A stretch of DNA of 64,000 nt from Candidatus Woesearchaeota archaeon (GTDB lineage Archaea; Nanobdellota; Nanobdellia; Woesearchaeales; 21-14-0-10-32-9): positions 26,147 to 90,146 of the forward strand of contig JAIPET010000001.1 of the NCBI GenBank assembly GCA_021736975.1, in the 5' to 3' direction. The first letter of the stretch is position 1. The number at the start of each line of letters is the position of its first letter. The notes under the pieces are model-generated. The model was not told where the DNA came from. It made no database searches and saw only the letters and a program-made list of their open reading frames with translations. Made by a program: the position numbers and the translations under genes. Shown in pieces: positions 293 to 37,162 of the stretch.

Positions 293-2392
293 ATGTCCGA
301 AGCTCCAGCAAAAAAAGATAAGTCAGTAATGGTACTTTCAAAAGTACATAGTGGCAGTAGGCAAACTGCTCTCACAGTAGATTATTCTACAGTTAATTAT
401 ACTAAATTAGAAACTATTTACAAAACCGATCAAATGCTTTTTCAAGCTGTCAACATCATCAGTAATTTTGCTATTTCTAAAGGGTATGAATTTATTATTG
501 ATGAGAATGTCAAAGAACAGATTGATCAAAGGGAAATCATATCTGACTTTGATTCAAAAGTAAATTTACCTAAACTTCTTACTGATGTTGTTAGACATTT
601 ACACATTTATGGTAATGCATATCTTGAGATTGTTTTCTCAAAAACTGAAAAAGATAAAGTTGTAGATCTTGTCTTAATTGATCCAAAAACTATCGAGTTT
701 AAGAAAACAGGTGCAGGAGAAATAGATCTTGATGATCAAGGCAAGATTAAAGGGTATGTTCAGAAAGTTGGAACTAAGACAATCGACTTAGATCCTGGTC
801 AAGTAATTCATTTCAGAATAAATACAATCGCTGATTCATTAACTGGTACTGGAATTATTGAGCCAGTCACTAAACTTATTGAAGCTAAAAGAAATATTGA
901 GCTAGGTCTTGCTGAATCCGTTTACAGACATGGCTTTCCTCAATTTCATGTTAAATTAGGAGATAAAGAACATCAACCAGAATCAGAACAGGTTGAAGAA
1001 GAAAGTGAGAAATATAAAAAGATTAATTCTAAATCTGAATTTGTTACGCCTTATTATTATGAGATTAAAGTTCTTGAAGCGCCATCTCTAAAAGGAGGAG
1101 AAGGTTATCTGAAATATTTTATTGATCAAATAGTTGCAGGTACTGGAGTTCCTAAAACTATTCTGCTTGGCACAGGAGAGAATACTAATAGAGCATCTTC
1201 TCAAACTGAGCAACAGAATTTCTTCTTATACATTGGAGGAATACAATCTCTCGTTTCTTCAGTATTAGAAAAAGAGTTATTTACAAAGATATTGAAAGTT
1301 GAAGAAAATACTGTTAGAATTCAATTTAATTCTTTACAATCAAAGACTGATCTTGAACTTGCACAAGAAAGGGAAATCTATCTGAAGTATGGAGTTGTTA
1401 CTCCTGATGAAGTCAGGCAAGAGATGGGCTTAGATCCTATTTCTTCACCCCCAAAAGAAAATAGCCAAGACATCTCTAATGTTTCATCAGGAGATTTTTT
1501 TAATTCAGATGACTTTTTAGGAAATGAAGATTTAATGATTGTGGAAGATGAAGATTTTAATGATGTCTTTATGCCTTATGCTCAGAAGTTTGCAGGATCT
1601 GATGCTAGTATCATGGAAGCACCGGGTGTTTTAGAAGTGTTAGGTCAACCAATTAAATCTAGATTTATCAAAGATGAACACATACTTATACATAGAGCTA
1701 ATAAGATCTTTGACAAGATAAGAAAGAAATTCTTAAAAGAGATTGATGGGAGATATGATATTAAAGATGATCTTGACAAACTCAAAGCTGAAGATATTAT
1801 TATTGATTCTGAACTACTTGCTCCTGAAAGAGATGCATTAGCAGCTGCAATATTTCTGGACTCTAAAAAGAAATTCAAACAAGGAATAAACTTGGGAGAG
1901 AAGTTTATCAAGAAAAATAATCCTGTTGTTGCAGGAATCAAGATTAAAAGTACAGTTCATGAGCCAGCACTTAAAGCATTAGATCTTTCTTCTTCTAAAC
2001 TTGCAGGTAAGGTTAGTGATGATTTGTTAAGGGAAACACAAAGAGTTCTACGTGAAGGTATTCAAGCAAGAAAAGGAGTAACTCAATTGAAAGAAGATAT
2101 TGAAACTGTATTTGAAAAGTTTGGAGGAACAAGTGGAAGATTCAATAAGATGGGAACTAGATCTGAATTAATTGCTAGAACTGAATTACAAAGATCTTTC
2201 ATTAATGGGAATATTCAAAGTTTCAAGGATCTAAAAGTTAAAACACTTAGAATGGTTACATTACCTGGTGCTTGTGAACAATGTTTAGAAGCTTCACCTG
2301 ATAATCAAGTAGTGCCGATTGATTTATCAGATGGAATTCTTCCAATTCATCCTAGATGCAGATGTGGCTGGTTTGCTAATAGTTTTAGTTAG
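293..2392 (+). CDS. phage portal protein fused to a Mu-gpF/SPP1-gp7-like head morphogenesis domain
   Basis: 699-aa ORF opening the structural module; the C-terminal ...HPRCRCGWF motif is typical of the Mu F family; too long for a portal alone. Confidence 0.45.
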   Translation: MSEAPAKKDKSVMVLSKVHSGSRQTALTVDYSTVNYTKLETIYKTDQMLFQAVNIISNFAISKGYEFIIDENVKEQIDQREIISDFDSKVNLPKLLTDVVRHLHIYGNAYLEIVFSKTEKDKVVDLVLIDPKTIEFKKTGAGEIDLDDQGKIKGYVQKVGTKTIDLDPGQVIHFRINTIADSLTGTGIIEPVTKLIEAKRNIELGLAESVYRHGFPQFHVKLGDKEHQPESEQVEEESEKYKKINSKSEFVTPYYYEIKVLEAPSLKGGEGYLKYFIDQIVAGTGVPKTILLGTGENTNRASSQTEQQNFFLYIGGIQSLVSSVLEKELFTKILKVEENTVRIQFNSLQSKTDLELAQEREIYLKYGVVTPDEVRQEMGLDPISSPPKENSQDISNVSSGDFFNSDDFLGNEDLMIVEDEDFNDVFMPYAQKFAGSDASIMEAPGVLEVLGQPIKSRFIKDEHILIHRANKIFDKIRKKFLKEIDGRYDIKDDLDKLKAEDIIIDSELLAPERDALAAAIFLDSKKKFKQGINLGEKFIKKNNPVVAGIKIKSTVHEPALKALDLSSSKLAGKVSDDLLRETQRVLREGIQARKGVTQLKEDIETVFEKFGGTSGRFNKMGTRSELIARTELQRSFINGNIQSFKDLKVKTLRMVTLPGACEQCLEASPDNQVVPIDLSDGILPIHPRCRCGWFANSFS

Positions 2393-2405: not shown

Positions 2406-3246
2406 TTGAAATATTTCTCTATGTTTTCTGGAGTGGGAGGATTTGAAATTGGGATCAAAAAAGCAATACCAAAAGCAAAATGTATCGGATTCTCAGAAGT
2501 TGATACATACTCAGTTCAAATATATCAAAAGCACTTTCCAAAGCACAAGAATTTTGGTGATGCAACAAAAATCAACCCAAAAGACATACCTAACTTTGAT
2601 TTATTATGTGCAGGATTTCCTTGTCAAGCATTCAGCATTGCTGGAAAAAGGAAAGGTTTCGAAGATTCAAGAGGCACTTTGTTTTTTGAGATTGAAAGAA
2701 TTCTTAAAAGCAAAAAACCTGATTATTTACTCCTCGAAAACGTTAAAGGCCTACTCAGTCACAAACAAGGGAAAACTTTTGCCTACATTTTACAACGGCT
2801 GGATGAATTGGGGTATTGTATTGAATGGATGGTTCTTAACAGCAAGGATTTCAAAGTTCCCCAAAACAGAGAAAGAGTGTACATTATTGGATATCATAGA
2901 GAAAAATCCAAAAGAAAAATATTACCTTACGGATCAAACATTGAAATATTTAATAAAGCGAATCCGAAAGGGTTGGAACTCCAATATGATGGAGATTATC
3001 AAAGCAAAAGAATCTATTCTATATCAGGAGTTGCTCCAACAATACCCACAAGCAAATCAGGAGGAAATCATATTCCGTTTATTTCAGAAATACATTAGAC
3101 GATTGACTCCATTAGAAACTGAACGAGCTCAAGGGTTTCCAGATAACTGGACAAAAGGAGTCTCTGAAACACAAAGATATTCTATGATGGGGAATGCAGT
3201 AACAGTTAATGTAATTAAAGAAATACTTTCTAAAATAAAAAAATAA
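2406..3246 (+). CDS. DNA (cytosine-5)-methyltransferase, interrupted by an apparent frameshift near 3070-3100
   Basis: Motif I FSGVGGF, motif IV GFPCQAFS and motif VI ENVKGL lie in the frame of 2406..3098; motifs IX/X IRRLTPLETERAQGFPDNW...GNAV continue in the overlapping +1 frame ORF 2443..3246. Confidence 0.8.
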
Positions 3247-3277
3247 AAGGTGTCTCAGCCCACTTAGCCTGACTATT

Positions 3278-3366
3278 CCGACAAACCGGCCATTATTGTT
3301 TAGATTATTGTTGCCGTTGAGACCGTTATAATTATTGTTAAGGAACAGGACACGGCCCCAAGAGTA
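3278..3366 (-). repeat. DGR template repeat (TR), non-coding
   Basis: About 89 bp homologous to the 3' ends of both target genes; every difference from the VRs falls where the TR has T on the + strand (A on the coding strand); TR codons in the VR frame are mostly AAT/AAC and a stop codon is present. Confidence 0.8.
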
Positions 3367-3561
3367 GCCATTTCACTTTCTGGAAAGCCACCACCACTTC
3401 ACACATTAGGTGTCGTGGTTGTATTTTATAACAGCTAGGCTGTCATAGTGAAACGACGTGTAGTTCCAAGCTACTTCATTGCTTTTAATAAAGCAGCTGA
3501 GACAAAGTAGTAAGAATATATCTTATATAAAAACGTTTTTGTTTTCAGATTCTTTGGATGA

Positions 3562-4464
3562 TTATTTTCGCGCGCTTGGCGCCTCCGGCGCTACCCCGAC
3601 AAACCGGCCACCACCGTATAGATTATCGTCGCCGCCGAGACCGCCATAATCACTGTACAGGAACAGGACACGGCCCTGAGGAGTACTAGCATCACGACCA
3701 CCAAAAGGATGATAACAACCTAAGGTATCATCAGACGTGTCTTTTGCTCTTTCAAAGTATTCTTCTAAATTTTGCATTCCTGCGTTTCTTGCCATCACTA
3801 AAGAATTTGCTAAAAACTCCCTTTTTTTAACATAAGTAGATTCAGTATTCTGAGCTACTGAGTAAGGCATTACAATTCCAAACTGATGAGGTAAATCAGA
3901 AACACCTTTTTTAATTTCATCATCAAAATGATATAATTTAATTCCAGAGCCATCAGGAAGTTTACCATCCAGTAAATCATCAAACTCTTGATTTGTATAT
4001 TTAGCACTACCACTTACTAATCCTTCATCATAAGCTTGTTTAATACGTTTAGGAGTTAGTATTCCTCCGCCATTAACTAAAACTAAGACTGGTTCATTAG
4101 CACCATAAAATCTTCCCTTTTGATCAATTCCGATGTTTTCTTCTGTGTGAACAGTAAGCCAATTTTTATAAAAATCATGATTCTTTCCAGCTTTAACTTT
4201 GGCTGCAATAAGTTCAGGCATTGTAGCAACATAACCAGTACTTCCAGCATGTTCTAAAGCTTGTTGCAAAGCATCAGCAAGATTGCCATCATAAAACATC
4301 TTGCCTTTTAATATATCATTAATATTAACCATGTTTTGAGGCATAGCAGGTTGAGTTCTATTTGGGTTATTAACAGGTTGCCTTAAAGGTATTTCTTGTC
4401 CAGGAATCCAACCAGTAGCTTGAATGAATTTCTCCAAATCTTTATCAGGAATTATTCGAGTCAT
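3562..4464 (-). CDS. DGR variable (target) protein 1 with C-terminal variable region
   Basis: 300 aa; paralog of 6465..7385 with identical N- and C-terminal ends (MTRIIPDKDLEKFIQATGWIPGQEIP...FVGVAPEAPSARK); VR lies at the 3' end. Confidence 0.75.
   Translation of the reverse strand: MTRIIPDKDLEKFIQATGWIPGQEIPLRQPVNNPNRTQPAMPQNMVNINDILKGKMFYDGNLADALQQALEHAGSTGYVATMPELIAAKVKAGKNHDFYKNWLTVHTEENIGIDQKGRFYGANEPVLVLVNGGGILTPKRIKQAYDEGLVSGSAKYTNQEFDDLLDGKLPDGSGIKLYHFDDEIKKGVSDLPHQFGIVMPYSVAQNTESTYVKKREFLANSLVMARNAGMQNLEEYFERAKDTSDDTLGCYHPFGGRDASTPQGRVLFLYSDYGGLGGDDNLYGGGRFVGVAPEAPSARK
3568..3597 (-). promoter_or_regulatory. GC-rich IMH-like element with hairpin (GCGCC-TCC-GGCGC) at the VR1 3' boundary
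   Basis: tcgcgcgcttggcgcctccggcgctacccc is identical at both VRs and absent from the TR (TR has tagcctgactattcc instead); contains a short palindromic stem. Confidence 0.5.
3596..3685 (-). repeat. DGR variable region VR1
   Basis: Aligns to TR 3278..3366; 14 substitutions at TR-adenine positions, one elsewhere, and one indel at the 5' edge. Confidence 0.75.
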
Positions 4465-6449
4465 TTTGAAAGTAACACCTCCAGTCCAGCCTGAAGCATT
4501 TTATCCTTATCGTGAACAGGATGATAAACAATGTTAGGATCATTTCTTACGGCATTTCCTAGATCATAAGTTCCACCAATTTCAAAAAGTACAACATGAT
4601 TATTAGGATTACTTGCTATTTCTTTCATTTTCTTGGCTTCTCTTTGTGTTCGACCATCAATAACTAAACTACCATCAGTTACAACAACATATGTTCTTTG
4701 CTGTCCATCACGATAATTTGTGATACTGATATCTTCTTCATCATAACCATTATTAGGCTTAAACAAAGCACCTAAAGGTCCTGTTTCTCCTTTCCAAAAT
4801 TGATCAACAGTTACAATATCTGAACTTACTTGAGAATTACCAAAATTATGAATTCTCATTTTTGTTTGTTTACCCACCTGCTTTTCTCCTTGATGTAAAG
4901 CATCAACAAAACCATACATGACATGACTTAACATATCCCATCTACTTCCGTCATTTACTTTATATCTGCCAGCAGTACCGCCAAACATACTTCCTGAACT
5001 GTCAAGATAAAACTCAACCATATCAGGAACATTCATATGAGCATCAACATAAACAATATCTTTAAGATCTCGCTCTTTTAATTCATACTCGTTAAGTCTA
5101 TAAGTGCTATTTCCTATATCCATAAGCCATGGCAAACGAGTTTTCTTTTGTAAAGTACTGATTCTTCCAAGATTTACTCTACTTAATTGGTCTTCGGTAA
5201 GGACAGTACTCTTCTTTAGATTCCAATATTCTTGTTTTCCAACTATAACACTCTCGCCAACTTTTTGACCTCCAAGAATTTGAACCTTAGGATGATTTCG
5301 TTTGTAAAATTCATGTGTAGCTAAAACATCAAGATTTTTCATCTCATCAGCACTAGAATCTTTACTGCCAGGTTTTTTATTATCAACATCTTGAGGAAGT
5401 TGCATCTGAGATGCAGCTTGTTGTAAATCACCATCACTTTCTTGAGCTAATCCTTGAACGAATTGTTGTTGTTCAACAGGCGTCATGTCATCTAATAAAT
5501 CTTGTAAAATATTTTGAGGTGAAGCACCGCTACCAGCACCTTGCATATCAGGTCTTCCTTGAGGCATTCCTTTCTGAACATAAGGACCTAATACAGCCAT
5601 AAAACGTTCAATACCTTTATATCTATCATCTCCAGAAAAAACCTCTCTAATATCACTAACATAGGCTTGAACACGCTCATAATTCTCTTGATCAGAACCA
5701 CTTCCAAATAAAGATTTAGCTCTATCGACTAACGAAGCTCCTTTTGATTTAGGTAAATCAACAGATTGACCAATTAAACTACCTAAAGCTTTCTCAGCAA
5801 CAGCAACTCCTTCTTTGCCAGATTTACCTTCAAAGAAGCCATGAGTGCTTGCAGGACCGTACATAACACCATACAAGAATCTTGTAACAGTATAAAAATT
5901 AGTTTCAGAAGGAGAATCTTGTAATTCTAACAAGTCCCAAGTAGGAATAATATCATCTCTAACATACTCTCCTTTTTTATTATCTAATGCGAAACGATTA
6001 TCTAAAATAAAATCTTTAACTCCATTTTGAGATGCTTGAACCTTAACTACTTGTTCAAGTGGACTAAGATTTGGTTCAGCTTTTACAACACCACGTCTAA
6101 TGGATTGGTGGATTAATTTGTTATCATTATTTTCTCCTTCAACACTAAAAGGAGCTTCAATAGGATGATAAAGTTCATGATGTAATAAGTAATGTAAAGT
6201 CTCTTTTGCTAATTCTTCAGGAGTTCCATCCCAATACTTAGCAACAACATCTTCAAACTTTTGAGCTAAATTATTATCTTGAGAAATTTCTGCATAAATT
6301 CTTTTAAGATCAGTTGAAAATGTCCAGTCACGACCATTTTGTGCAACTCTTCGAATAACAGGAGTATCACTACGTAAAGGAAAGTCTCTCCTGACGTCAT
6401 CACGCCAGTCACGTTCAGCTTCATTAAGAAGCAATTGCATATCTTTCAT
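4461..6449 (-). CDS. VWA-domain (MIDAS) protein with N-terminal HExxH metallopeptidase-like motif
   Basis: DSSGSM MIDAS motif followed by DG/VVTDG stretches in the C-terminal third; HHELYH near the N-terminus; lies between the two DGR targets in one operon. Confidence 0.5.
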   Translation of the reverse strand: MKDMQLLLNEAERDWRDDVRRDFPLRSDTPVIRRVAQNGRDWTFSTDLKRIYAEISQDNNLAQKFEDVVAKYWDGTPEELAKETLHYLLHHELYHPIEAPFSVEGENNDNKLIHQSIRRGVVKAEPNLSPLEQVVKVQASQNGVKDFILDNRFALDNKKGEYVRDDIIPTWDLLELQDSPSETNFYTVTRFLYGVMYGPASTHGFFEGKSGKEGVAVAEKALGSLIGQSVDLPKSKGASLVDRAKSLFGSGSDQENYERVQAYVSDIREVFSGDDRYKGIERFMAVLGPYVQKGMPQGRPDMQGAGSGASPQNILQDLLDDMTPVEQQQFVQGLAQESDGDLQQAASQMQLPQDVDNKKPGSKDSSADEMKNLDVLATHEFYKRNHPKVQILGGQKVGESVIVGKQEYWNLKKSTVLTEDQLSRVNLGRISTLQKKTRLPWLMDIGNSTYRLNEYELKERDLKDIVYVDAHMNVPDMVEFYLDSSGSMFGGTAGRYKVNDGSRWDMLSHVMYGFVDALHQGEKQVGKQTKMRIHNFGNSQVSSDIVTVDQFWKGETGPLGALFKPNNGYDEEDISITNYRDGQQRTYVVVTDGSLVIDGRTQREAKKMKEIASNPNNHVVLFEIGGTYDLGNAVRNDPNIVYHPVHDKDKMLQAGLEVLLSK

Positions 6450-6464
6450 TGTTTGATACCTTCT

Positions 6465-7385
6465 CTATTTTCGCGCGCTTGGCGCCTCCGGCGCTACCCC
6501 GACAAACCGGCCATAATTGTTAAGATAATTGGCGCCGCTGAGACCGAAATAACTATAGTTAAGGAACAGGACACGGCCCTGAGGAGTACTAGCATCACGA
6601 CCACCAAAAGGATGATAACAACCTAAATCACCATCACTTGCTTTTGCCATTTCATAATATGATTCTAAATTCTCAAGTCCTCCTGCTCGAGCAATAACTA
6701 AAGGATTTTTCATAAAATCTTTCTTTTGATGATAACCTGATTTAGTTCCTTGAGCTATAGAATAAGGCATAACAACACCAAACCTATGAGGTAAACCAGA
6801 AACACCATCTTTTATTTGTTCAAAAGAAAACAATTCAATCTGAGAACCATCAGCTAATTTACCATCTAACAGATTATCAAACTCTTGATTTTCATATCTC
6901 GCACTATTGCTAATTAAACCCTCACCATAGGCTTTCATAATTCTATCAGGTGTAAGTATTCCTCCACCATTAACAACTACTAAAACAGGCTCATTTGCAG
7001 AATAAAACCTACCTTTTTGATCAATTCCGATGTTTTCTTCAGTATGAACTGCATACCATTTTTGCCAAAAATCATGACTTTTTTCTGCTTTTAATTTAGC
7101 AGAAATAAGTTCGGGCATTGTGGCAACATAACCATCAGTTCCAACATAATCTAAAGCTTCACCTAAAGCAACTGCTAAACCAATATAATTACCATCTTTC
7201 TTTTTTTCACTAAAAAAAGTCTTTCCCTTCAAGATATCATCAATATTAACGATACTTTGAGAAGTAATGGGTTGTGTTCTATTTGGGTTATTAACAGGTT
7301 GTCTTACAGGTATTTCTTGTCCAGGAATCCAACCAGTAGCTTGAATGAATTTCTCCAAATCTTTATCAGGAATTATTCGAGTCAT
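6465..7385 (-). CDS. DGR variable (target) protein 2 with C-terminal variable region
   Basis: 306 aa paralog of 3562..4464; the C-terminal 30 residues differ only at VR positions. Confidence 0.75.
   Translation of the reverse strand: MTRIIPDKDLEKFIQATGWIPGQEIPVRQPVNNPNRTQPITSQSIVNIDDILKGKTFFSEKKKDGNYIGLAVALGEALDYVGTDGYVATMPELISAKLKAEKSHDFWQKWYAVHTEENIGIDQKGRFYSANEPVLVVVNGGGILTPDRIMKAYGEGLISNSARYENQEFDNLLDGKLADGSQIELFSFEQIKDGVSGLPHRFGVVMPYSIAQGTKSGYHQKKDFMKNPLVIARAGGLENLESYYEMAKASDGDLGCYHPFGGRDASTPQGRVLFLNYSYFGLSGANYLNNYGRFVGVAPEAPSARK
6471..6500 (-). promoter_or_regulatory. GC-rich IMH-like element, second copy
   Basis: Identical 30-mer to 3568..3597, immediately 3' of VR2. Confidence 0.5.
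6499..6588 (-). repeat. DGR variable region VR2
   Basis: Aligns to the TR; differences (T to A, G or C on the + strand) occur only at TR T positions. Confidence 0.75.
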
Positions 7386-7390
7386 TTTAT

Positions 7391-8980
7391 CTACCTCACA
7401 ATAGAACCTAACCTGTGCTCATAGATACTGCTTTGTCCTTTTTTAGATTGATAGATTTCTCCAAAAGCTTTTATTGCTTCAGGTCCTCTTTCTTTTAGAG
7501 CAGAAGAAATATCTCCCTCATATGACCTACTAAAATGATCAAGCACTACAAGGTCAGCTAACACTCTTGATCTCATTGTTGCTTGAGCTGCACTTGTTGC
7601 TTGAGTATTAAGTTGAGACATATTATGTTGTAAGAAATTAAGATATTCCTTAAATCCATGTTCTTGACCAACTTTAATGGCTCCTTGCCATGCAGCTTGT
7701 CTTAATCCATAACCTTCAGGAATTCCAGCACCCTTATGCATATCAGCATAAGCTGATCTAGCATCATTTACAAGAGCCATTAAACTACCATAATCAGTAC
7801 CTGTAATTGTCTTACTTTCTAAAATTACTCCAATTCCTGCAGTAACATCATTTAAACCAACAGATGCATCATACGAACCATCTTTTACTCCTTTAATAAA
7901 TCCAAGAAGTCGTGATAAATCTCTGATTTTTCTAAGATCACGTCTAACAAATCCGTGCTTTAATTTACCTTGTGCATCAAGAATCTTTCTATAATTATTA
8001 TCATCTCTAACTGAAAAGTTTGGAGTAACACCTGCTTGTTGTAGTAATTCAATATTTCTTTCAAATGTTTGTTTAGGATCATAACCTACATACCCAAGAG
8101 CTGCATCAATAAATTCTCTTGTTTGACCGTCAAGTTGAGATGGGAACTGCTCAGGGTCTGTTATAACTGGATAAACTTCTTTCCAGCTTCCTTTTACACC
8201 TGAACGTTTAGCAAATTCACTCCAAAACTGTTCGTGTAAATCTCCTGCTAATGTTTTTTCTAACTGACTTGAACCTGCTTCTGCAACTCCATTAGGAAAT
8301 TTGAATTTTAAGAATCTGTTTTCTCCTGCGATATCAAGGTCAAGTGCAGCACTATGTTCTGCATCCGCAGGGTTCATAGCAGCTAAGATAGCAAGTCCTT
8401 TGTAACTACCATCTTTTCCAGGAATAGGAAGCCTTAAGTAACCAGTATCTCCATTGACGTGTACTACGCCATCAACTACTTGAAATACTTCTTGACTATC
8501 TCCTCTGTTAATTTCATCAATAAATAATGCTCCGTATTTAGAACATTTTTCTTGGTCAATCCTTGTTTTTGGTACTCCATTCTCTAAAGTGGTTTTAGTA
8601 AAAGGTTCAAGAGCTGAACTGCCTAAAACTCCTCCACTTAGTCTAAGAGTGTAATGCCCATCAGGACCGAATACTGCATTGAATAAGGCATCACTCGTGT
8701 ACGTTTTTCCAACACCCGTTACACCTTCATAGAGTACGTGAAAATCATCAAAAAACATGGATGCAGTATCAATATCGAGTACTGTTACTTCGGTTGAATT
8801 TGGAGAAGGTAATCTTCCTTTTCCATTTAAAAATTTCACATCAACATTATCTCCTTCTGTAATCTCCATATAAGGCGTTGGAGATACAACGCCATCAAGT
8901 GTGTCATACAAAGTTTGAACGAAATGTTTTCTCATTTCCTTATGATCTTTTTTTTCAGTTGCCATTTTGTACTTCTCCAT
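7391..8980 (-). CDS. AAA+ ATPase, MoxR-like
   Basis: Walker A GVTGVGKT, Walker B ALFIDEINRGD; 529 aa; upstream in the same operon as the VWA protein and the DGR targets. Confidence 0.6.
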   Translation of the reverse strand: MEKYKMATEKKDHKEMRKHFVQTLYDTLDGVVSPTPYMEITEGDNVDVKFLNGKGRLPSPNSTEVTVLDIDTASMFFDDFHVLYEGVTGVGKTYTSDALFNAVFGPDGHYTLRLSGGVLGSSALEPFTKTTLENGVPKTRIDQEKCSKYGALFIDEINRGDSQEVFQVVDGVVHVNGDTGYLRLPIPGKDGSYKGLAILAAMNPADAEHSAALDLDIAGENRFLKFKFPNGVAEAGSSQLEKTLAGDLHEQFWSEFAKRSGVKGSWKEVYPVITDPEQFPSQLDGQTREFIDAALGYVGYDPKQTFERNIELLQQAGVTPNFSVRDDNNYRKILDAQGKLKHGFVRRDLRKIRDLSRLLGFIKGVKDGSYDASVGLNDVTAGIGVILESKTITGTDYGSLMALVNDARSAYADMHKGAGIPEGYGLRQAAWQGAIKVGQEHGFKEYLNFLQHNMSQLNTQATSAAQATMRSRVLADLVVLDHFSRSYEGDISSALKERGPEAIKAFGEIYQSKKGQSSIYEHRLGSIVR

Positions 8981-9281
8981 CTAGAATTTTTATTTTAATT
9001 TCAACAAGCGTTTTAGGTCTAAGTTTATCTCTTAGGAATGCAGGAATAATGATTATATTCTGAGCTCCTTGCTTGCTGATTTGTTTTGTTAGTGTAAATT
9101 CATTCATTATACATTCACCATATAAACCACATAATATTTACATGTTGTTACTATGTAGTAAGCACAACTACTATTTAAATCTTTCTATATTTAGTCACTT
9201 ATAAGTAGTCCTTATTTGCTTTAGTACTCTGTTATTTATAAAGAAATAGGTAATTCTTTAAAAAGTTCTCCAACATAAACA

Positions 9282-9476
9282 TTACTCTGTTATGGGGAAT
9301 TTTTCAATAATTATGAACTCTTTATCGCCTGATCTGACTGCACTAACTTGTACTTTACTGCCGCTCTTTAAACCAATAGCTTTAGCTTCACGAGTGACCA
9401 AAACTCCAATTCCATTCCCGTAAGTATTCAACTGTTTTACAGATCTTTCGATGATTTCTTTTTTTGAATCAGTCAT
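9282..9476 (-). CDS. AbrB/MazE-like swapped-hairpin DNA-binding protein
   Basis: 64 aa from the internal Met (MTDSKKEI...); NGIGVLVTREAKAIGLKSGSKVQV resembles an AbrB/SpoVT domain; divergent from the RT. Confidence 0.45.
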   Translation of the reverse strand: MTDSKKEIIERSVKQLNTYGNGIGVLVTREAKAIGLKSGSKVQVSAVRSGDKEFIIIEKFPITE

Positions 9477-9486
9477 ATATTGTATA

Positions 9487-9579
9487 ATACTGTATATAAC
9501 TAATAAACACAGTATTATACTGTATATTACATATCCTTTGAACAACGTTAATAAATAAATGTAAGATACTGTATATTAC
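9487..9579. promoter_or_regulatory. three direct repeats ATACTGTATATWAC in the AbrB/RT divergent promoter region
   Basis: Copies at 9487-9500, 9517-9530 and 9565-9579, the last abutting the RT ATG; a partial inverted copy lies at 9508-9520. Confidence 0.5.
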
Positions 9580-9580
9580 T

Positions 9581-11254
9581 ATGGGTGATAAAAAAGACAT
9601 TCTTGTAGAAATATATGATGAAGTTTGTTCATATGAAAATTTAGAGCTAGCATTTCAAAGAGCCAGAAGGGGAAAAACACTAAAGCAGTATGTGATTGAT
9701 TTTGAAAAAGATTTAAAGGAAAATTTATTACAATTAAGATCGGAACTTCTTTTACATACATACGAACCAAGACCATTAAAAACATTCATTCTACGAGATC
9801 CAAAAACAAGAAAAATTAGTAAATCTGCATTTAGAGACAGAGTCATTCATCATGCAATATGTAACGTTATAGAACCTGTTTTTGATAAGCGATTTGTTCA
9901 TGATTCGTTTGCTAATAGAATTGGTAAAGGAACTCTTAATGCGATAAAACGATTTGATGTTTTCAAGAGAAAAGTATCTAAGAATAATACTATAAAATGT
10001 TATGTTCTTAAAGCAGATATTAAAAGTTATTTTGATACAGTTGATCATGAGATTTTAATAAAACTTCTATGTAAAAGAATTCATGATGGGAGATTAATGT
10101 GGCTAATTAGAATTATATTAAATAATCATCAAGGAAAAGTATCGAGTAAGGGGATGCCTTTAGGAAATCTAACATCTCAATTCTTTGCTAACGTGTATCT
10201 TAATGAGCTTGATCAATATGTTAAACAAAAACTGCGAGCAAAATATTATATAAGATATGTAGATGATTTTGTAATCCTACATCAATCTAGAATTCAATTA
10301 GAAGAGTATAAGGAAAAGATAGACCAGTTTCTCAAAGAAAAATTAGAACTAAAATTACATCCATTTAAATCTCAAATTATAAAATTAGAAAAGGGAATTC
10401 CTTTTTTAGGAATCAGAGTTTTTTATCATCACAAACTTCTTGTGAAAAAGAATATGAGAAAATTTGAGAAAAAAATGGAAGTTATGAAAAAAGATTACCA
10501 ATTGGAAAAAATAGAACGTGAAAAAGTAATAGAAAAATATGAGGGATGGATTGCCTATGCATCACATGCTAACACATACAAATATAGAAAACGGATGACT
10601 AGTAAATTAAACCATTCTTTCCCTGCTCAATCTGAAGTAAAAATTACTGCAGTAAAAAAACATGAGAATTTTCATAAAAAAGTAGATTTAAGTAAAATTG
10701 ACTTTACCCAACAAAAAACTCTACAATTAATTAATAGAGGAGTATCTATTGATAACATCGCTAAACAAAGAAACTTAAAGATTGGAACTGTTTGGGATCA
10801 TATCGCAAATCTAGTGGAATATCATCAAGTACCTCTTAAAAAAGTAATAACAACAAAGAAAGTTCATAAAATATTGTATGCAATAAAATCTCCAGAAGAT
10901 AAACTCAAAGATATCAAACAAAGAATAAATGATGAATCAATAAGTTATAATGAAATTCAAGTAGTACTTGCAAATGTAAAATCAAAGCATAAGAAAAAAA
11001 GTATTTCATATTATGTTGAATGGTATCAAAGAACAAACTGCTTTAGGAAATGCTATTACAATAAAGATCAAAGAAAAGAATGTCGAGTTAAATTTCAGCA
11101 ATTAGTAGCAAAAGGATTGAATATGGAGTTCTCAAAACATGATTTTCTGGATTTTTTTCATAATCATGTGAATATCTGTGTTCTACCTGAGAAAGATAAA
11201 AAAAGATTTATGTCTTGGGATGAATTTAAGAAATCAATTAAAAAGAAGCATTGA
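9581..11254 (+). CDS. DGR reverse transcriptase with about 180-aa C-terminal extension
   Basis: RT motifs: FDTVDH, GMPLGNLTSQFFANVYLNELD (DGR-type ...GxxxSQ) and YIRYVDDFVIL (YxDD); the extension carries an HTH-like segment and a Cys cluster. Confidence 0.85.
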   Translation: MGDKKDILVEIYDEVCSYENLELAFQRARRGKTLKQYVIDFEKDLKENLLQLRSELLLHTYEPRPLKTFILRDPKTRKISKSAFRDRVIHHAICNVIEPVFDKRFVHDSFANRIGKGTLNAIKRFDVFKRKVSKNNTIKCYVLKADIKSYFDTVDHEILIKLLCKRIHDGRLMWLIRIILNNHQGKVSSKGMPLGNLTSQFFANVYLNELDQYVKQKLRAKYYIRYVDDFVILHQSRIQLEEYKEKIDQFLKEKLELKLHPFKSQIIKLEKGIPFLGIRVFYHHKLLVKKNMRKFEKKMEVMKKDYQLEKIEREKVIEKYEGWIAYASHANTYKYRKRMTSKLNHSFPAQSEVKITAVKKHENFHKKVDLSKIDFTQQKTLQLINRGVSIDNIAKQRNLKIGTVWDHIANLVEYHQVPLKKVITTKKVHKILYAIKSPEDKLKDIKQRINDESISYNEIQVVLANVKSKHKKKSISYYVEWYQRTNCFRKCYYNKDQRKECRVKFQQLVAKGLNMEFSKHDFLDFFHNHVNICVLPEKDKKRFMSWDEFKKSIKKKH

Positions 11255-14094: not shown

Positions 14095-14901
14095 ATGAAA
14101 TCAATGAAAGAACTGTTTTCAACACAAGATGCGGCACCTATCATTAAAGAAATCATTGACGCTAATGTGTTCAAGGTTGCTACAAGAGAAAGGGTTGGTC
14201 GTCAAATCTTGCGATTAATAAATTTGAGCGAGGGCTCTTCAATAAAAATCCCCAAGATGGGTAAAGGAAAAGCGTATGTTATTCCTGAACTTGGAGAAAT
14301 CCCACTAGATGTAAGTACATTTGGCGATGTGGTTATCACACCATATAAGATTGGAAAAGCATTTGCTGTTCCATCAGAAGCTATCGAAGATTCAGCTTTT
14401 GACGTGATTAAACTAAAAGCAGATATGGCAACAGAAGATGTTGTTGCTAAAGAAGATGATGAAATCTTCAGAGTAATAAGTAATACTACAAACACTGTGT
14501 CTCCAAAGACTGTAGGAGAGTTTGTCCAGGAAGACGTTATTACTCTAAGAAATGCTGTCAACAAGAATAACTACAAAGCCAAGTTCTTAGTAGGTCATCC
14601 TGATGATATCGCTAAGCTTGAGAAAGATCTTATTAGCAAGGGCTATAAGGCTTTTGATAGACTTGACGAAGATGGAATCATCGGTAATGTCTCTGGATTA
14701 AGGGTTCTTGAAACTACAGCTGTGGAAGCAGGTTCTGTTATTGCTTTGGATAGCAGGGCAGTTGTGTTAGTTGAAAGACGACCTCTGAAGTTGAAGAACT
14801 TTGAAGATCCATTAAGAGATCTTGCAGGTGGAGTTACACTAACTGAAAGGGTAGCACCAGCAGTCCTTGATGACAATGCAATAGCGAAGATGATTTTGTG
14901 A
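14095..14901 (+). CDS. major capsid protein, HK97 fold (paralog 1)
   Basis: 268 aa, RBS-like GAGGAGG upstream, gene-order position; the C-terminal half is clearly paralogous to 14947..15684. Confidence 0.5.
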   Translation: MKSMKELFSTQDAAPIIKEIIDANVFKVATRERVGRQILRLINLSEGSSIKIPKMGKGKAYVIPELGEIPLDVSTFGDVVITPYKIGKAFAVPSEAIEDSAFDVIKLKADMATEDVVAKEDDEIFRVISNTTNTVSPKTVGEFVQEDVITLRNAVNKNNYKAKFLVGHPDDIAKLEKDLISKGYKAFDRLDEDGIIGNVSGLRVLETTAVEAGSVIALDSRAVVLVERRPLKLKNFEDPLRDLAGGVTLTERVAPAVLDDNAIAKMIL

Positions 14902-20775: not shown

Positions 20776-23700
20776 ATGGCTGAATCAGTACGGATCAAAT
20801 TTACAGGAGAAGATAAGGTCTCACCTACTGTCTCCAGGATTAATTCAAGTTTAGGTAGTCTTGGCTCTAAAATATCATCTGTTGGGAAGTCTTTTAACAA
20901 AGTCAATAAGGCACTAGTTCTCGGCTTTACTGCAATCACGGGTGCCGTTGTAGCACTTGGGGTTAAAGCCATAAAGAGTTTTGGAGAGTTTGATAGGCAA
21001 ATTAAAAGAGTTCAAGTTCTGGCAGGTGGAACAGAAGAAGATTTTAAGAGTTTAATGGACACAGCGTTCAGACTTGGTTCTAGCACAGCTTTTTCTGCAC
21101 AAGAAGTTGCGGAAGCATTTGAAGAATTTGCTAAAGCTGGTTTTTCTGTGAATCAAATTCTAAAAGCATCTGAATCAACATTGGGTTTAGCAACTGCGGG
21201 TAATATTAATCTTGCTGAAGCAGTTAATATTTCTGTTGCCGCTCTAAATGCATTTGGTAGAGAAGCAGATGATATGAATGGAGTAGCAACTATCTTAACA
21301 ACTTCATTTACTAATTCTGCTCAAACACTCGAAGATCTTGGTCAAGCATTAAAGTTCGTTGCTCCATTAGCTTCTAGTTTAGGGATTAGTTTAGAAGAGG
21401 TTAGTGCAGCTCTTGGAACTCTAGCAAATGTTGGTTTAAAGGGAAGTATTGCAGGAACTTCATTAAATCAGGCGATGTTACAATTGCTTAATCCAACAAC
21501 TAAATCTGCAGAAGTAATGGAAGATCTTGGCGTACAATTCTTTTCACTTGATGAGGCAGGTCAAGCGGCGAGTGCAACTATTAGAGCAACAAAAGACGAA
21601 TTTAATTTACTAAGAGATCGAGTAAGAGAGAGTGATATTGAAGTTGCTAATTTGGGATCTCAACTTGCAGAAGCAAAAAGAGAATTAAGTGGTCTTGCTA
21701 AAGATGCAGGTGGATTTGAAGGATTATCATCAGGTCTTACTGCGTTACAAAATAGTTTCGATGATGCTAGACTGAAAAATAAAGAATTAAGAGATGCTCT
21801 TGATGCACAAGAATCAACTTTTGAAGGATTAAGAAAACAAGTCCAGGAAGGATCTCAAGAGTTTATAGGGTTAAGAGATACAGCTAAACAACTTAATGAT
21901 GCTTTCAATGAAGTGGATGCATCAAGAATCCAAAGGGCAATGGCATTGGTTCAAATCTTCAAAGTTAGAGGTGCAAGATCATTTTTAACACTTACAAAAG
22001 AAATAGAAGAGTTTGACAGGTTATTCAATACAATAGCCGCAACTGAAATAAGAACAGAACTCCTCGATGAAGCAAGTTTAAGAAAAGCACTTGATGCACA
22101 AGATAGTTTTGCCTCTGCATTTGGGATTACATTTGAGAAACTTGTAGCAGATGCAACAAAAGTTCCAGAAGGATTAGACAAAGCATTAACTGATGCAAAA
22201 CTAGACGAAAGAGCTAGAGATATATTTAGAAATCTTAGAGATGAAGTAACAAATCTTGGACTAGATAGTGAATCTGTTGAAGCAGTATTATCTGATTTTT
22301 TACCATTAGATGCTGTAAAAGATTTTAGAAAAATAATTCAACTTACTGATCAAGATTTTGAAAGTTTTTTAGCTAATATTAATGCAACAAATCAAGATGC
22401 TCAAACATTAAACAAGACACTCCTAAATAATTTAGGATCTGCTTTAGAAGAATTACAAGATACAGTAACAACTACTTTTATCAGAATTGGCGGGGCAATT
22501 GCAGAAAGATTAGATCTTACAAATGTAGTGAGAAATATTCAGCAAGCAATAGAAGATTTCTCTACAGGTGGAGGAGTTGAAGCATTAGCAGACAAACTTG
22601 TAAATGTGTTCAAAACTATTGGGAATTTCTTTAAAGGAATTAAAACAGGTTTTTCTCAAGTATTTACGCCTGAAATAATTGATAATCTAAAGAACGCATT
22701 TGTAAGAAACTTTGGAATAATTCAAAACGAAGCAGGTAATCTTGGAGTAGTCTTTGGAAGAATACTTGGGAGCATGGTTAAAGGGGGGGCTGAACTTATA
22801 ACTAGAGTATTAAATTCAGACATTATAGAAAATGCTAGTAAGGCATTTAAGAGAATTGGAAGTGTCCTTGAAAAATTAGGTCCTACTATTGGTGCAGTTG
22901 CTACTGGCTTTGTTTTACTATCTCCCATTTTAGGTCCTTTATTCTACATTGGTGGAAAATTAGCGAGTATATTTGGATTCTTAATATCATCAGTTATTGG
23001 ATCAGGAAAAGCAATCTCTGGACTGATTGGTGGAACAGGGAAACTTGGAGGATCTTTTGGAGGTATTATTGGAAAGATCACAGGGGTAGGTGCAACTGCA
23101 ACAAAGACAACAGCTGGAACTGCAGGACTTCTTGGAAAACTTGGAGGTCTTGGATCTTCAATAAGTGGAGTATTCTCTGCTATAGGGTCTGCTTTAGGTG
23201 TAAGTGCAGGTGTAGCGGCTGGCATTGTAGTCGCTGTGATTGGAACAGTTATCGGATTTATTAATCAAGTGAGACAGAATTTCTTAGGACTAGGGGATGA
23301 TTTTAAAACAATTTTCGGAGCTATATGGACAGTTCTCAAAGCTGTTGGGTCTGCATTAAAAGAAAACCTTATCGATATTGGTGGACTGCTTAAACCAATT
23401 TGGGAAGGTATCAAAGACACTTTCAATGGACTTGGCAAGATCTTAGGTGCATTGGTAGCCTCAGTTATTCATCCTTTTGCAGAAGGACTTAGAAGATCTG
23501 GAGATGAGGGGCTTAAAGCTGGAGAGATAATCAAAGGTGCAGTTACTCTTATGCTTGCTCCATTAAGAATTGCATTAACTATTCTTGGAAGTTTACTAAA
23601 AGCAGTTGGAGCAATAATTAATTTTGTAGCCACAATCATTGCAGGTATTGTTGAACTTGGCTTTGCTTTCCAAGACGCATTTAGGAGATTTAAAACAGAG

Positions 23701-24960
23701 GGATTTTCTGCATTTAAAGGAGTTGGAGAAGTAGCTAAAAAGATTGGAATATCTATTCTTAAATCATTCATAGGTGCAATTGATTCAATCATAAATATAT
23801 TCATAGATCTAATTAATGAAGTCGTAAATATAGCGAAAAAGATTCCTTTACTTAACAAAGTAATTGATAAAAATTTCAAAATAGATAAAAATGTGCTTGG
23901 TAATCTTTTAGGATTCAGTAAAGAAGCTGAGAAGACAGTTGACAAAATTAAAGAAACACAAGATGTCTTAACGGAAGCACCAACAGCAATACCTGGCATT
24001 CAAGCAACTCAATCATTTTTACCAGGAATAAATGAAGGAAATACTGCTGGTTTAGGATTCTCAAGTTCAGCAATTGAAGCAATGTCTACAAACAGTGATG
24101 CTATTACAGCTTCGGCAGTAGATCCATTTAAAGAAGCAAGTATCCAAGCATCAGACTTTGGATTCACTTCTATGGAAAATTACTCTGCTCCGTTTAGAGA
24201 TCCTGATGCAATATCTTCAATAAAATCAGATATTATGTCAGTATTTCCAAGTCCTGAACAAGCATCTCAACAAGGGAGAGAGTTTGGTAAATTCTTCTTT
24301 ACAGGTTTGGCTAGTGGGATGCAGGAATTATCTGGAATCTTTCAACAAAATATTTTACCTATTTTTACAACTATGAATGAAGCATTGAAAACATTTATTT
24401 CAGCTTTCTTGAGAAACTTGTTTGTGCTAAAATCAGTTCCACCATTCTTCTTGAAATTAGCAACAAACATTTACAGAATATTTGTTGGTGGATGGCAATC
24501 TACATTCAACATGATTGCAGACATTACAGAAACTGTAGTCAATAGTATGCAGAATAATCTAGAAATATTTTATAATAATCTAGTATCAATAATTAACAGA
24601 TTAATTTCTGAATATAATCGAGCTGCAGAGATATTAGCCAGAGACATTACTAGAACTCATAAAAGCACAAGATCATATACTGACAGTAAAGGAAGATCAA
24701 GAACTAAAACCACTTACAGAACTGAGACTCTCTACAAAGGAGTCAACATTCCAAAACTTGCCCAATTCTCTAATGTTAAACTGGATAAGCTTCAGCTAGA
24801 GAGAGCTATAATACCTCAGTCTCCTGTAACTGTAGATGCTGGCGGATTCAATGTCAATATAGAGAATCTTAACACTTCAAGTGAAACTGACAAACAGAGA
24901 TTATTCTCAGAAATTGATGCGTTTATTGCTAATAAACTTGGAGGTTTAGTAAGATTATGA
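20776..24960 (+). CDS. tail tape measure protein
   Basis: 1394 aa; N-terminal alpha-helical region, central Gly-rich hydrophobic stretch, canonical position. Confidence 0.8.
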   Translation: MAESVRIKFTGEDKVSPTVSRINSSLGSLGSKISSVGKSFNKVNKALVLGFTAITGAVVALGVKAIKSFGEFDRQIKRVQVLAGGTEEDFKSLMDTAFRLGSSTAFSAQEVAEAFEEFAKAGFSVNQILKASESTLGLATAGNINLAEAVNISVAALNAFGREADDMNGVATILTTSFTNSAQTLEDLGQALKFVAPLASSLGISLEEVSAALGTLANVGLKGSIAGTSLNQAMLQLLNPTTKSAEVMEDLGVQFFSLDEAGQAASATIRATKDEFNLLRDRVRESDIEVANLGSQLAEAKRELSGLAKDAGGFEGLSSGLTALQNSFDDARLKNKELRDALDAQESTFEGLRKQVQEGSQEFIGLRDTAKQLNDAFNEVDASRIQRAMALVQIFKVRGARSFLTLTKEIEEFDRLFNTIAATEIRTELLDEASLRKALDAQDSFASAFGITFEKLVADATKVPEGLDKALTDAKLDERARDIFRNLRDEVTNLGLDSESVEAVLSDFLPLDAVKDFRKIIQLTDQDFESFLANINATNQDAQTLNKTLLNNLGSALEELQDTVTTTFIRIGGAIAERLDLTNVVRNIQQAIEDFSTGGGVEALADKLVNVFKTIGNFFKGIKTGFSQVFTPEIIDNLKNAFVRNFGIIQNEAGNLGVVFGRILGSMVKGGAELITRVLNSDIIENASKAFKRIGSVLEKLGPTIGAVATGFVLLSPILGPLFYIGGKLASIFGFLISSVIGSGKAISGLIGGTGKLGGSFGGIIGKITGVGATATKTTAGTAGLLGKLGGLGSSISGVFSAIGSALGVSAGVAAGIVVAVIGTVIGFINQVRQNFLGLGDDFKTIFGAIWTVLKAVGSALKENLIDIGGLLKPIWEGIKDTFNGLGKILGALVASVIHPFAEGLRRSGDEGLKAGEIIKGAVTLMLAPLRIALTILGSLLKAVGAIINFVATIIAGIVELGFAFQDAFRRFKTEGFSAFKGVGEVAKKIGISILKSFIGAIDSIINIFIDLINEVVNIAKKIPLLNKVIDKNFKIDKNVLGNLLGFSKEAEKTVDKIKETQDVLTEAPTAIPGIQATQSFLPGINEGNTAGLGFSSSAIEAMSTNSDAITASAVDPFKEASIQASDFGFTSMENYSAPFRDPDAISSIKSDIMSVFPSPEQASQQGREFGKFFFTGLASGMQELSGIFQQNILPIFTTMNEALKTFISAFLRNLFVLKSVPPFFLKLATNIYRIFVGGWQSTFNMIADITETVVNSMQNNLEIFYNNLVSIINRLISEYNRAAEILARDITRTHKSTRSYTDSKGRSRTKTTYRTETLYKGVNIPKLAQFSNVKLDKLQLERAIIPQSPVTVDAGGFNVNIENLNTSSETDKQRLFSEIDAFIANKLGGLVRL

Positions 24961-33564: not shown

Positions 33565-33623
33565 ACTTAAAATAAACATACATACCTAGAATTGGCAATG
33601 CAGGGATTAAATATTCCATTATA

Positions 33624-33872
33624 TCAACCATGCAGTATGTATTCACAAAGTCTTCTTAATTGACCTGCTTTGATCTCTATCTTTTCAGTTGCATCAGAAT
33701 AATCTAATTTTTCTTCCCATGTTCGAGCAACTCTTTTTACATAGTCTCTCTCATGTTTTTCTTTGCTTAGATGTTTTCGATCACTGAATCTTCCCTTTTT
33801 GTCTCGTCTTTTTGATTTCATATGTATAACCTTGATTACATTAATCCAAAGAATCTCTTTATCTTTTGCCAC
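33624..33872 (-). CDS. hypothetical basic protein
   Basis: 82-aa ORF. Confidence 0.3.
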   Translation of the reverse strand: MAKDKEILWINVIKVIHMKSKRRDKKGRFSDRKHLSKEKHERDYVKRVARTWEEKLDYSDATEKIEIKAGQLRRLCEYILHG

Positions 33873-33905
33873 AGAGTAAATTTAACTTCTATCTTGTGGG
33901 GGCTT

Positions 33906-34133
33906 TTAATTCTTTGAAGTGTTCTCTTTTTGGTAGTTTTCTTTTTTGTTTTTGCCATGAGTTCTTCCTCCTATTCTTTGGTTGATTTCATGATTTAAGA
34001 AATTTCTAAATGCGATAATATCTTTAGTTCTATGATTGACTTTGTACTTCATGCCAATTCGTTTCATATCGATAAGTTCCTTTAGACTAACAACGAGTCC
34101 TCCCTTAGACGATACTTTCATTTGTTGATCCAT
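33906..34133 (-). CDS. hypothetical protein
   Basis: 75-aa ORF, overlaps the next start. Confidence 0.3.
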   Translation of the reverse strand: MDQQMKVSSKGGLVVSLKELIDMKRIGMKYKVNHRTKDIIAFRNFLNHEINQRIGGRTHGKNKKENYQKENTSKN

Positions 34134-35188: not shown

Positions 35189-35290
35189 ATTATGTAGAGT
35201 TGTCCAAGTATCTTAGACACTACATATAGTGTCCAAATTATTACTGCACTAAGACCCATTGTCTTAATGAGTAATGCAACAAGGAGAATC

Positions 35291-35689: not shown

Positions 35690-35748
35690 TTAATAGGCCT
35701 GGATTCTCAACTGTTTGATTCATTGGTTTCTTACAGTAATGACATGAG

Positions 35749-37161: not shown

Positions 37162-37162
37162 T

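Follow-up and report, generated by a model that had tools for sequence, protein, structure and literature searches.

Organization of the cassette

The 64,000-nucleotide (nt) stretch of Candidatus Woesearchaeota contig JAIPET010000001.1 described here (the window) is a head-tail provirus of a DPANN archaeon, and between 3232 and 11254 it holds a complete, active diversity-generating retroelement (DGR) cassette. The cassette comprises a divergent reverse transcriptase (RT), two small open reading frames (ORFs), a 529-aa ATPase, target 2, a 662-aa protein with a VWA domain, target 1, an RT-16 RNA leader and a template repeat (TR). A first-pass annotation, made from the sequence alone, had read ATPase, target 2, VWA protein and target 1 as a single operon, and we confirm this: the four genes (3562..8980) are tightly packed on the minus strand, with a 5-nt gap between ATPase and target 2, a 15-nt gap between target 2 and the 662-aa protein, and a 4-nt overlap between the latter and target 1. 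The TR, which the same annotation had made the last element of the operon, does come after target 1, but it begins only 203 nt further on, behind the RT-16 leader and a TATA-like, promoter-like element (~3523..3541) that precedes this leader.

An 86-nt repeat is present in three copies in the window (3273..3358, 3591..3676 and 6494..6579). Read on the minus strand, the first of these shows 29 mismatches to the other two, and 28 of them fall on its adenines. It is therefore the TR, and it contains 27 adenines and 12 AAY codons. VR1 (variable repeat 1; 3591..3676, minus strand) forms the 3' end of target 1, with 16 of its 17 mismatches to the TR at adenines, and VR2 (6494..6579, minus strand) forms the 3' end of target 2, with all 12 at adenines. 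The two hypervariable DGR targets proposed earlier are thus real. The hairpin GCGCC-GGA-GGCGC follows VR2, and an identical one follows VR1. Since the conserved flanks of the repeat occur at these three sites and no others in the 64-kb window, no gene of the tail module is diversified. This includes the gene at 28733..31402 (889 aa), which had been called a bona fide tail fibre outside the reach of the DGR. The second half of that statement stands; the name came from its position and finds no support in PHROGs or Pfam, where a weak "head protein" PHROG match and DUF4815 (E 0.005) were all that could be found, and we have dropped it.

That the DGR is active follows from comparison with the orthologous cassette of a related provirus, L034 (locus handles are ours). 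VR1 differs from its orthologue at 16 nt and VR2 at 14, in each case with 13 of the differences at positions of TR adenines, while the two TRs differ at 1 nt.

The RT (557 aa; 9581..11254, plus strand) is transcribed away from the operon, at a distance of ~6 kb from the TR. It matches RVT_1 (E 7.7e-27) and the reverse transcriptase family phrog_1423 (E 7e-114), carries YVDD at residue 226, and has the signature LGNLTSQ (10160..10180, aa 194-200), which fits the DGR motif [LIV]GxxxSQ; by motif and family matches it is a DGR-clade enzyme. Residues ~376-557 form a C-terminal extension of ~200 aa with an HTH_40 domain (E 1.8e-19) and a Cys/His-rich tail, and relatives of the protein come in two lengths, long (~557 aa) or short (~370-396 aa). 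An Avd-like ORF was not found in the cassette, nor was an HRDC protein; the RT carries HTH_40 instead. An Avd or HRDC accessory protein is not universal among DGRs.

Two small ORFs accompany these genes. The first (64 aa; 9282..9476, minus strand) lies between RT and ATPase and is 84-100% identical in amino acid sequence in L001, L027, L029 and L034, against 66-76% for the rest of the cassettes. The second (50 aa; 8955..9107, minus strand) overlaps the start of the ATPase gene; ORFs of 48-58 aa occupy the same place in L003 and L039 and have a ribbon-helix-helix-like appearance there. Both small ORFs may encode regulators. Neither has a significant match in Pfam, and an AbrB/SpoVT identity, a pattern seen by eye, was dropped for want of Pfam support.

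An RT-16 motif (Rfam RF03019; 3359..3502, minus strand) is matched over its full length at 84.1 bits (E 1e-11), with its 3' end directly at the first base of the TR. The same arrangement, RT-16 abutting the 5' end of the TR, is seen in six of six complete related cassettes (L029, 15429-15563; L003, 16325-16475; L019, 15468-15606; L032, 6930-7096; L009, 15530-15754; L033, 15199-15379). Given this position, RT-16 would seem to form the 5' leader of the template RNA in DGRs of this type. The motif has been published merely as occurring near RT genes (PMC5737381); with no function assigned to it before, it now has a genomic position directly 5' of the TR. At the other end, a small stem-loop with a T-run (3232..3272, minus strand; fold z -2.0) is likely the terminator of the TR RNA.

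The diversified targets

Target 1 (300 aa; 3562..4464, minus strand) and target 2 (306 aa; 6465..7385, minus strand) are AvpA-family proteins with a C-type-lectin (CLec) fold, an assignment that comes from sequence comparison. AvpA is a variable protein of a Nanoarchaeota DGR with a divergent CLec fold (PMC5006420). Target 1 matches the AvpA of PDB 5IOO in phmmer (E 3e-9) in two stretches over residues 53-295, so that the similarity covers the lectin domain in full, VR included, and conserves the GRFVGV strand; target 2, which is 100% identical to NCBI K9N07_07745, falls into the same family by jackhmmer. The likeness extends to the organization of the retroelement: a VR at the CLec end with GRFVGV, 12 AAY codons, a coding hairpin with a trinucleotide loop and several targets per DGR are found in both (PMC5006420, PMC4372165). 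By this comparison the active DGR rewrites 12 AAY codons in the predicted ligand-binding face of two AvpA-type lectins.

Two further observations concern the targets as a group. Targets before and after the VWA gene cannot be treated as fixed positional orthologues, a scheme that we abandoned when the diagnostic insertion turned up at either position. Among the best 120 of 172 homologues, all of ~290-310 aa, none was a Rosetta-stone protein in which an AvpA-like domain is fused to the ATPase or the VWA protein.

The ATPase and the VWA/HExxH protein

The ATPase (529 aa; 7391..8980, minus strand) is a divergent MoxR-like AAA+ protein. Walker A (GVTGVGKT, 8702..8725), Walker B (FIDEINRG, 8501..8524) and a sensor-1 region (AAMNPAD, 8363..8383), all on the minus strand, are readily located. 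In an alignment of 26 sequences G86, T88, G89, G91, K92, E156 and N203 are invariant, and T93 and D155 nearly so; the AAA+ core (GxxGxGKT, DE, N203) is thus complete, and the Walker motifs of the first-pass annotation prove to be conserved. An AlphaFold2 model built from 26 relatives (pLDDT 87.4) has beta-hairpins at the expected positions, and a Foldseek search of it against PDB ranked MoxR (2R44) best (E 7.5e-7), followed by MCM subunits and NorQ. This ranking puts the modelled protein in the helix-2-insert/pre-sensor-II clade. The earlier designation as a MoxR-type ATPase is accordingly supported, but at the level of fold and below any curated family threshold. In keeping with this designation, AAA_5 is matched below threshold in 15 of the 26 family members (best E 0.0026). 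The family comprises ~120 clusters at 48-96% identity, and its profile found nothing significant among PDB sequences (McrB, E 0.03).

The 662-aa protein (4461..6449, minus strand; model pLDDT 86.5) has an N-terminal helical domain, a middle part of long beta-hairpins and a C-terminal VWA domain with a metal-ion-dependent adhesion site (MIDAS). The MIDAS motif DSSGSM (4986..5003) and the segment VVVTDG (4671..4688), both on the minus strand, lie in this last domain; D592 is invariant and D483, S485, S487 and T591 nearly invariant in the alignment of 26 sequences, so that a Rossmann-like VWA fold with a DxSxS...T...D metal site is present. The HExxH motif (HELYH, 6165..6179, minus strand; H91-E92-x-x-H95) is invariant in the family and conserved in a distant sister family as well; in the prediction it lies on a helix (77-98) that a beta-hairpin precedes. 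Both motifs had been pointed out earlier and both hold across the alignment; it is from the HExxH motif that we call its domain a putative metallopeptidase.

By sequence the 662-aa family is isolated. When 1.84 billion representative proteins were searched exhaustively by profile, 106 relatives came back, with no link to ordinary VWA or peptidase families, and the family profile found nothing significant among PDB sequences. The distant sister family (~720-760 aa) pairs with a homologue of the ATPase and a partner of 245-265 aa (L035, L037, P0254).

Library searches tell the same story for the operon as a whole. The profile searches that the first-pass annotation had recommended gave no match for any of the four proteins in Pfam (even at E 10), PHROGs, NCBIfam or PADLOC, hence no match to tail, baseplate or fibre proteins; nor did tblastn of the ATPase and the VWA protein against 50,697 phage records. 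Standard hidden Markov model (HMM) libraries therefore miss the whole module, which represents a gap in detection. No signal peptide, transmembrane (TM) segment or hydrophobic segment was found in the four operon proteins.

A shared N-terminal tag on interchangeable clients

Compared with AvpA (255 aa, with a C-terminal tail of 46 aa), the targets have ~50 extra N-terminal residues, made up of a conserved peptide of ~20 aa (the tag) and a linker rich in proline and glutamine. In the window the tag is MTRIIPDKDLEKFIQATGWIPGQ, identical in targets 1 (4387..4464, minus strand) and 2 (7308..7385, minus strand). Elsewhere its consensus is M-T/I-K/R-IIPRELIKHLEW-x-PGQ or, written out, M-T/I-K/R-I-I-P-R-E-L-I-K-H-L-E-W-x-P-G-Q. 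A 24-residue tag HMM, which detects target 2 at E 1e-8, matched the N-termini of operon genes exclusively among 1763 ORFs in 569 kb.

The two targets of the window are 89% identical in nucleotide sequence over the 5' tag region and 71-76% in mid-gene, and tags are 85% identical within an operon against 46% between operons. Such homogenization fits co-adaptation to the operon's own partner. The tag also persists where the lectin bodies have diverged beyond alignment (L006, L011, L021, L033, L015).

In some operons the tag heads something other than a lectin. In L088, five genes around the ATPase and the VWA protein all start with MVKEIPRG, and their bodies are a helical-repeat protein, a DGR-type lectin, a protein of 38-aa repeats, a leucine-rich repeat (LRR) protein and a protein of 50-aa repeats. 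In L038, four clients come after the genes for ATPase and VWA protein, two of them LRR proteins (LRR_14, E 5e-39) and two of them repeat proteins, and all four have one common variant tag; no RT or TR lies within 10 kb. The canonical tag HMM failed to detect this variant, which is tied to the canonical tag through L087, where the canonical tag sits on the same repeat body as in L038, and through L088. The same tag thus heads LRR, propeller-like or helical-repeat proteins in related operons, with DGR lectins as the commonest client type in the tagged slot. Judged by sequence, every client protein in these operons starts with the conserved tag and a linker rich in proline and glutamine. Because the tag heads lectin and non-lectin bodies alike, the ATPase and the VWA/HExxH protein are the conserved core of the system, and the tagged, presumably ligand-binding proteins its variable slot.

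Distribution and mobility

The cassette recurs in about 90 loci of DPANN archaea, and its gene order was followed in 29 genome loci and 56 independent metagenome loci: after a divergent RT and one or more small ORFs come the ATPase, one or two targets, the VWA protein and a further one to three targets, with the TR last. In every complete cassette the TR comes after the last target, and each target has a VR with mismatches at adenines. For the synteny counts we used the 16 genome loci in which 5.5 kb or more lie downstream of the ATPase gene; ATPase and VWA protein occur together in 15 of these, and tagged genes in 13. AvpA-type lectins are, in the loci compared, always in one operon with a divergent ATPase of the MoxR clade and a protein that couples an invariant HExxH helical domain with a MIDAS-competent VWA domain. 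Nearly all the relatives belong to Nanoarchaeota, Woesearchaeota, Parvarchaeota and Nanohalarchaeota.

Their surroundings vary. L029 and L034 (IMG/VR contig) are related proviruses that carry the cassette at the same site as the window, between portal and capsid genes. The L001 operon is flanked by archaeal genes for ribosomal proteins, eRF1 and tRNA synthetase, with a PemK toxin gene adjoining; L003 lies on a 270-kb Woesearchaeota contig next to methylase and nucleotidyltransferase (MNT) genes; and L039 adjoins conjugation genes of the TrbC/VirB4 type on a conjugative element. The first-pass annotation had recommended a look at homologous viruses, and the cassette is indeed found in them, and outside viruses as well.

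Within the proviruses the cassette behaves as a discrete unit. The window (3239..11247) and L034 (7735-15745) are 94.7% identical in nucleotide sequence, exactly from the end of the RT gene to the TR terminator, the left edge of the exchangeable segment, while the flanking virion proteins are just 50-78% identical. This contrast marks the cassette as an exchangeable moron and not a part of the virion programme, and it looks to have been exchanged recently between related viruses.

Two observations on individual copies may be added. L001 (10001-15413) has the operon on a chromosome, in the order ATPase, target, VWA, target, with no RT, TR or RT-16 within 10 kb on either side; this copy is either served in trans or a DGR fossil. 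In L034, a TAG stop interrupts the VR of the target 1 orthologue (…GDD*DGLYG…, about 15307-15392), which could be damage left by mutagenesis or an artefact of assembling a mixed population.

Relation to known systems

DPANN archaea and CPR bacteria hold a large share of the known DGRs. Already known are DGR biology itself, the AvpA fold, the partnership of MoxR and vWA proteins, and the link of DGR lectins to MoxR and vWA in cyanobacteria and gammaproteobacteria. The closest parallel to the cassette is found in those bacterial vWA-MoxR (VMAP) systems, in which a MoxR ATPase, a MIDAS vWA protein and a DGR C-type lectin (FGS) likewise share one locus (PMC7159879, PMC10907252). They too are predicted cytoplasmic sensors, and their vWA protein has an effector-like domain that is occasionally a metallopeptidase, with which the HExxH domain here may be compared. 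The differences are as clear. The lectin of VMAP systems is of TvpA/FGE type and fused to the vWA protein, whereas that of the cassette is of AvpA type and a separate polypeptide with an N-terminal tag; the ATPase and vWA protein of the cassette, unlike theirs, are too divergent for Pfam; and the hosts are multicellular bacteria in one case, DPANN archaea and proviruses in the other. Pfam finds no VMAP-C protein among the operon proteins, the third component being the tagged lectin, and because no VMAP protein is present we class the cassette as a variant and not as a member of the VMAP systems.

The best structural matches of the ATPase and the VWA protein lead to Midasin/Rea1 with its MIDAS-UBL (ubiquitin-like) contact, NorQ-NorD and CbbQ-CbbO, in which a MIDAS adaptor captures an element of the client and an AAA+ ring remodels or releases it. 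These machines mature ribosomes or metallo-enzymes and have one fixed client, whereas the clients of the cassette are hypervariable or interchangeable and its adaptor carries an HExxH motif. An archaeal-virus pair of MoxR ATPase and VWA partner exists in p618 and p892 of Acidianus two-tailed virus (ATV). That pair acts in tail development, whereas the cassette pair travels with a DGR, also outside viruses, and tblastn of phage and virus records found no sequence match between the two.

As a retroelement, the cassette has in common with that of Bordetella phage BPP-1 (Mtd) an RT, adenine mutagenesis between TR and VR, a target of the CLec fold, a hairpin flanking the VR and carriage by a (pro)virus. 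It differs in that its target is not a virion protein, in the lack of Avd, in a TR 6 kb from a divergent RT, and in the side of the RNA motif, RT-16 lying 5' of the TR where BPP-1 has RT-10 3' of it. A DGR lectin joined to an AAA-type ATPase has also been described in ultra-small prokaryotes in a 2017 paper; as summarized in PMC10907252, it is a fusion, and that summary reports no VWA/HExxH partner.

Our literature search, which did not cover Paul et al. 2017, found no description of AvpA-type targets as obligate components of an operon of this kind, of an HExxH-VWA fusion and a cryptic MoxR-like ATPase as their partners, of separate-polypeptide clients joined by a common tag, of LRR or repeat proteins in the slot of a DGR lectin, or of carriage of such a module by DPANN proviruses. 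AvpA-type targets have been described as orphans, with no mention of an ATPase or VWA partner (PMC5006420, PMC4372165), and the CPR and DPANN DGRs examined by Dore et al. were stated to lack partners from conflict systems (PMC10907252). The cassette does not fit that picture. The theme of DGR, MoxR and vWA extends from multicellular bacteria to ultra-small archaea and their viruses, and the targets of Nanoarchaeota and Woesearchaeota, functional orphans since 2015, have obligate partners that now make their function testable.

A possible recognition system and its alternatives

What might such a cassette do? The first-pass annotation had suggested that it does not encode a classical receptor-binding protein, and the presence of the same cassette in the chromosomal context of L001 and beside the conjugation genes of L039 bears this out. 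We propose that its products form a self-contained, soluble and probably cytoplasmic recognition machine of three parts, at work in DPANN archaea and in the mobile elements that they harbour. This would be a MoxR–vWA ternary recognition and conflict system, an archaeal variant of the bacterial DGR-linked vWA–MoxR systems, a proposal made by analogy to which we give about an even chance. DGR-diversified CLec domains have been proposed as the sensors of vWA-MoxR conflict systems (PMC10907252), and the principle common to MoxR-vWA pairs is that the MIDAS captures an extended client peptide which the AAA+ ring then remodels at the expense of ATP (PMC7159879, section 8). The tag, a conserved N-terminal peptide with a flexible linker behind it, has the form that such a capture element should have. 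Drawing on Midasin/UBL, NorQ/NorD and the vWA-MoxR ternary systems as analogues, we propose that the MIDAS site of the VWA protein, or the AAA+ ring, would capture the tag and linker of each client; that binding of a ligand at the hypervariable face of the lectin would be coupled to ATP-driven remodelling by the ATPase; and that the HExxH domain would provide the output, as a peptidase acting on the linker or on the captured ligand. Such a machine would likely recognize foreign proteins, of viral origin or from rival elements, and for this provirus that would mean superinfection exclusion or inter-element conflict, with the DGR providing anticipatory diversity of receptors. The choice between adhesion and defence is one that we infer. 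An intracellular conflict role is favoured because the proteins are predicted to be soluble, because LRRs replace lectins in the slot, and because proviruses, a conjugative element and islands bearing toxin or methylase genes carry the module.

A broader reading, which we advance tentatively and hold to be somewhat less probable than not, is that the short tag docks interchangeable receptor modules, be they DGR-hypermutated AvpA lectins, LRRs, propeller-like repeats or helical repeats, onto a common MoxR-vWA-zincin engine in DPANN archaea and mobile elements. If true, this would be an archaeal counterpart of antigen-receptor immunity, in which germline (LRR) and somatically diversified (DGR) receptors feed one pathway, and it would overturn the view of DPANN DGR targets as orphan adhesins unconnected to conflict systems.

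Several results weigh against a recognition and conflict system of this kind. No PADLOC defence model fits the operon, the cassette contains no recognizable toxic effector and no VMAP component, and the defence-island context is anecdotal, coming from few loci. The ATPase and the VWA protein meet no curated family threshold; for the ATPase this means that it stays below those of Pfam AAA_3 and AAA_5, the window protein giving no match even at E 10. No fold or profile match connects the HExxH domain to a peptidase, VWA matches having filled the result lists, and PhageMetallopep was matched in 2 of 26 family members at E 0.054. Docking of the tag is inferred. A missing signal peptide is compatible with unconventional export in DPANN cells. 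Finally, one member of the distant sister family (P0254, JGI 3300072015) sits in a type IV pilus-like cluster, among genes for T2SSE, two T2SSF proteins, ParA and a KaiC-like protein.

The last two points lead to the main rival, display of adhesins for attachment to a host. Here the tag would be a targeting signal, and the ATPase and VWA protein would load lectins and LRR or repeat proteins onto pili, S-layer or vesicles, serving the attachment of an episymbiotic DPANN cell to its host or, for a provirus, lysogenic conversion of adhesion. Handa et al. indeed proposed that AvpA-like proteins act in symbiotic interactions (PMC5006420), pairs of vWA and MoxR/GvpN proteins have been linked to archaeal type IV pilus loci (PMC4858521), L038 adjoins a gene for a 3500-aa Laminin_G/FG-GAP surface protein, and CLec and LRR domains are typical adhesin modules. 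The pilus-like context, however, is that of one locus of a distant sister family. In the Pfam-annotated loci there are no secretion or pilus genes in or beside the cassette, the other loci not having been screened specifically for pilus genes, and the LRR clients, like the four operon proteins, have no signal peptide, class III pilin signal or TM segment. We therefore consider display unlikely.

It is also conceivable that ATPase, VWA protein and HExxH peptidase form a private chaperone for quality control, which would fold, assemble or cull the products of mutagenesis. Many DGR variants would misfold, the tag would be the address of the client, and the function of the lectins would lie elsewhere. 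MoxR-vWA pairs are classically maturation chaperones, as in RavA/ViaA, NorQ/NorD and CbbQ/CbbO (PMC9976466, PMC13036017), a stoichiometric operon arrangement fits, and the stop within the VR of the L034 orthologue can be read as a casualty of mutagenesis. Against this, the same pair serves LRR and repeat proteins in L038 and L088 that are not mutagenized, no RT or TR being found in the available sequence, so that the requirement for the pair is not linked to mutagenesis, and in other lineages DGR targets mostly do without a chaperone of this kind. Given these non-mutagenized clients, we regard quality control as improbable, and less likely than the recognition system outlined above. A module for virion assembly or receptor binding, with MoxR and VWA proteins in morphogenesis and virion-borne lectins, can be recommended by its place in the head-morphogenesis module of three related proviruses, by the MoxR-VWA chaperone pair of ATV (Scheele 2011, as cited in PMC7159879) and by the fact that most viral DGRs diversify tail fibres, yet it is essentially excluded by identical operons without viral genes in L001 and L003 and beside conjugation genes in L039, and argued against further by the moron-like exchange with L034, the absence of a PHROG or phage-record match and a location not restricted to virion modules.

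The surrounding provirus

The remaining genes of the window place the cassette in its context. Genes for a portal (293..2392), a major head protein (14095..14901), a tape measure protein (20776..24960) and a tail protein (25349..27892) are recognizable, and they are followed, within 33600..44000, by type I methylase and specificity subunits (36067..39187), a Cdc6/Orc1-like ATPase (39461..40516) and an integrase (42173..43057). From ~45 kb onward (44600..64000) the genes are cellular, among them those for AdoHcy hydrolase, an aminotransferase, a solute symporter and queuosine salvage. The last of these has a counterpart with 85% identity in a metagenome-assembled genome of Nanoarchaeota, and it is this gene, the Cdc6/Orc1 gene and the DPANN relatives of the cassette that point to a DPANN host.

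A C-5 cytosine methylase gene (2406..3246, plus strand) is apparently split by a frameshift. The first ORF (2406..3098) contains the N-terminal motifs, covering positions 1-181 of 324 of the Pfam model, and a second, overlapping ORF in another frame (2443..3246) ends with the C-terminal motifs (...QGFPDNW...GNAVTVNV). This arrangement could represent a pseudogene, a sequencing error or programmed frameshifting. Among the cellular genes, the ORF at 45667..48069 (plus strand) encodes an 800-aa fusion of a PfkB-family kinase and an S-adenosylhomocysteine hydrolase, and the 46-48 kb bin has an unusually high AT skew of 0.42.

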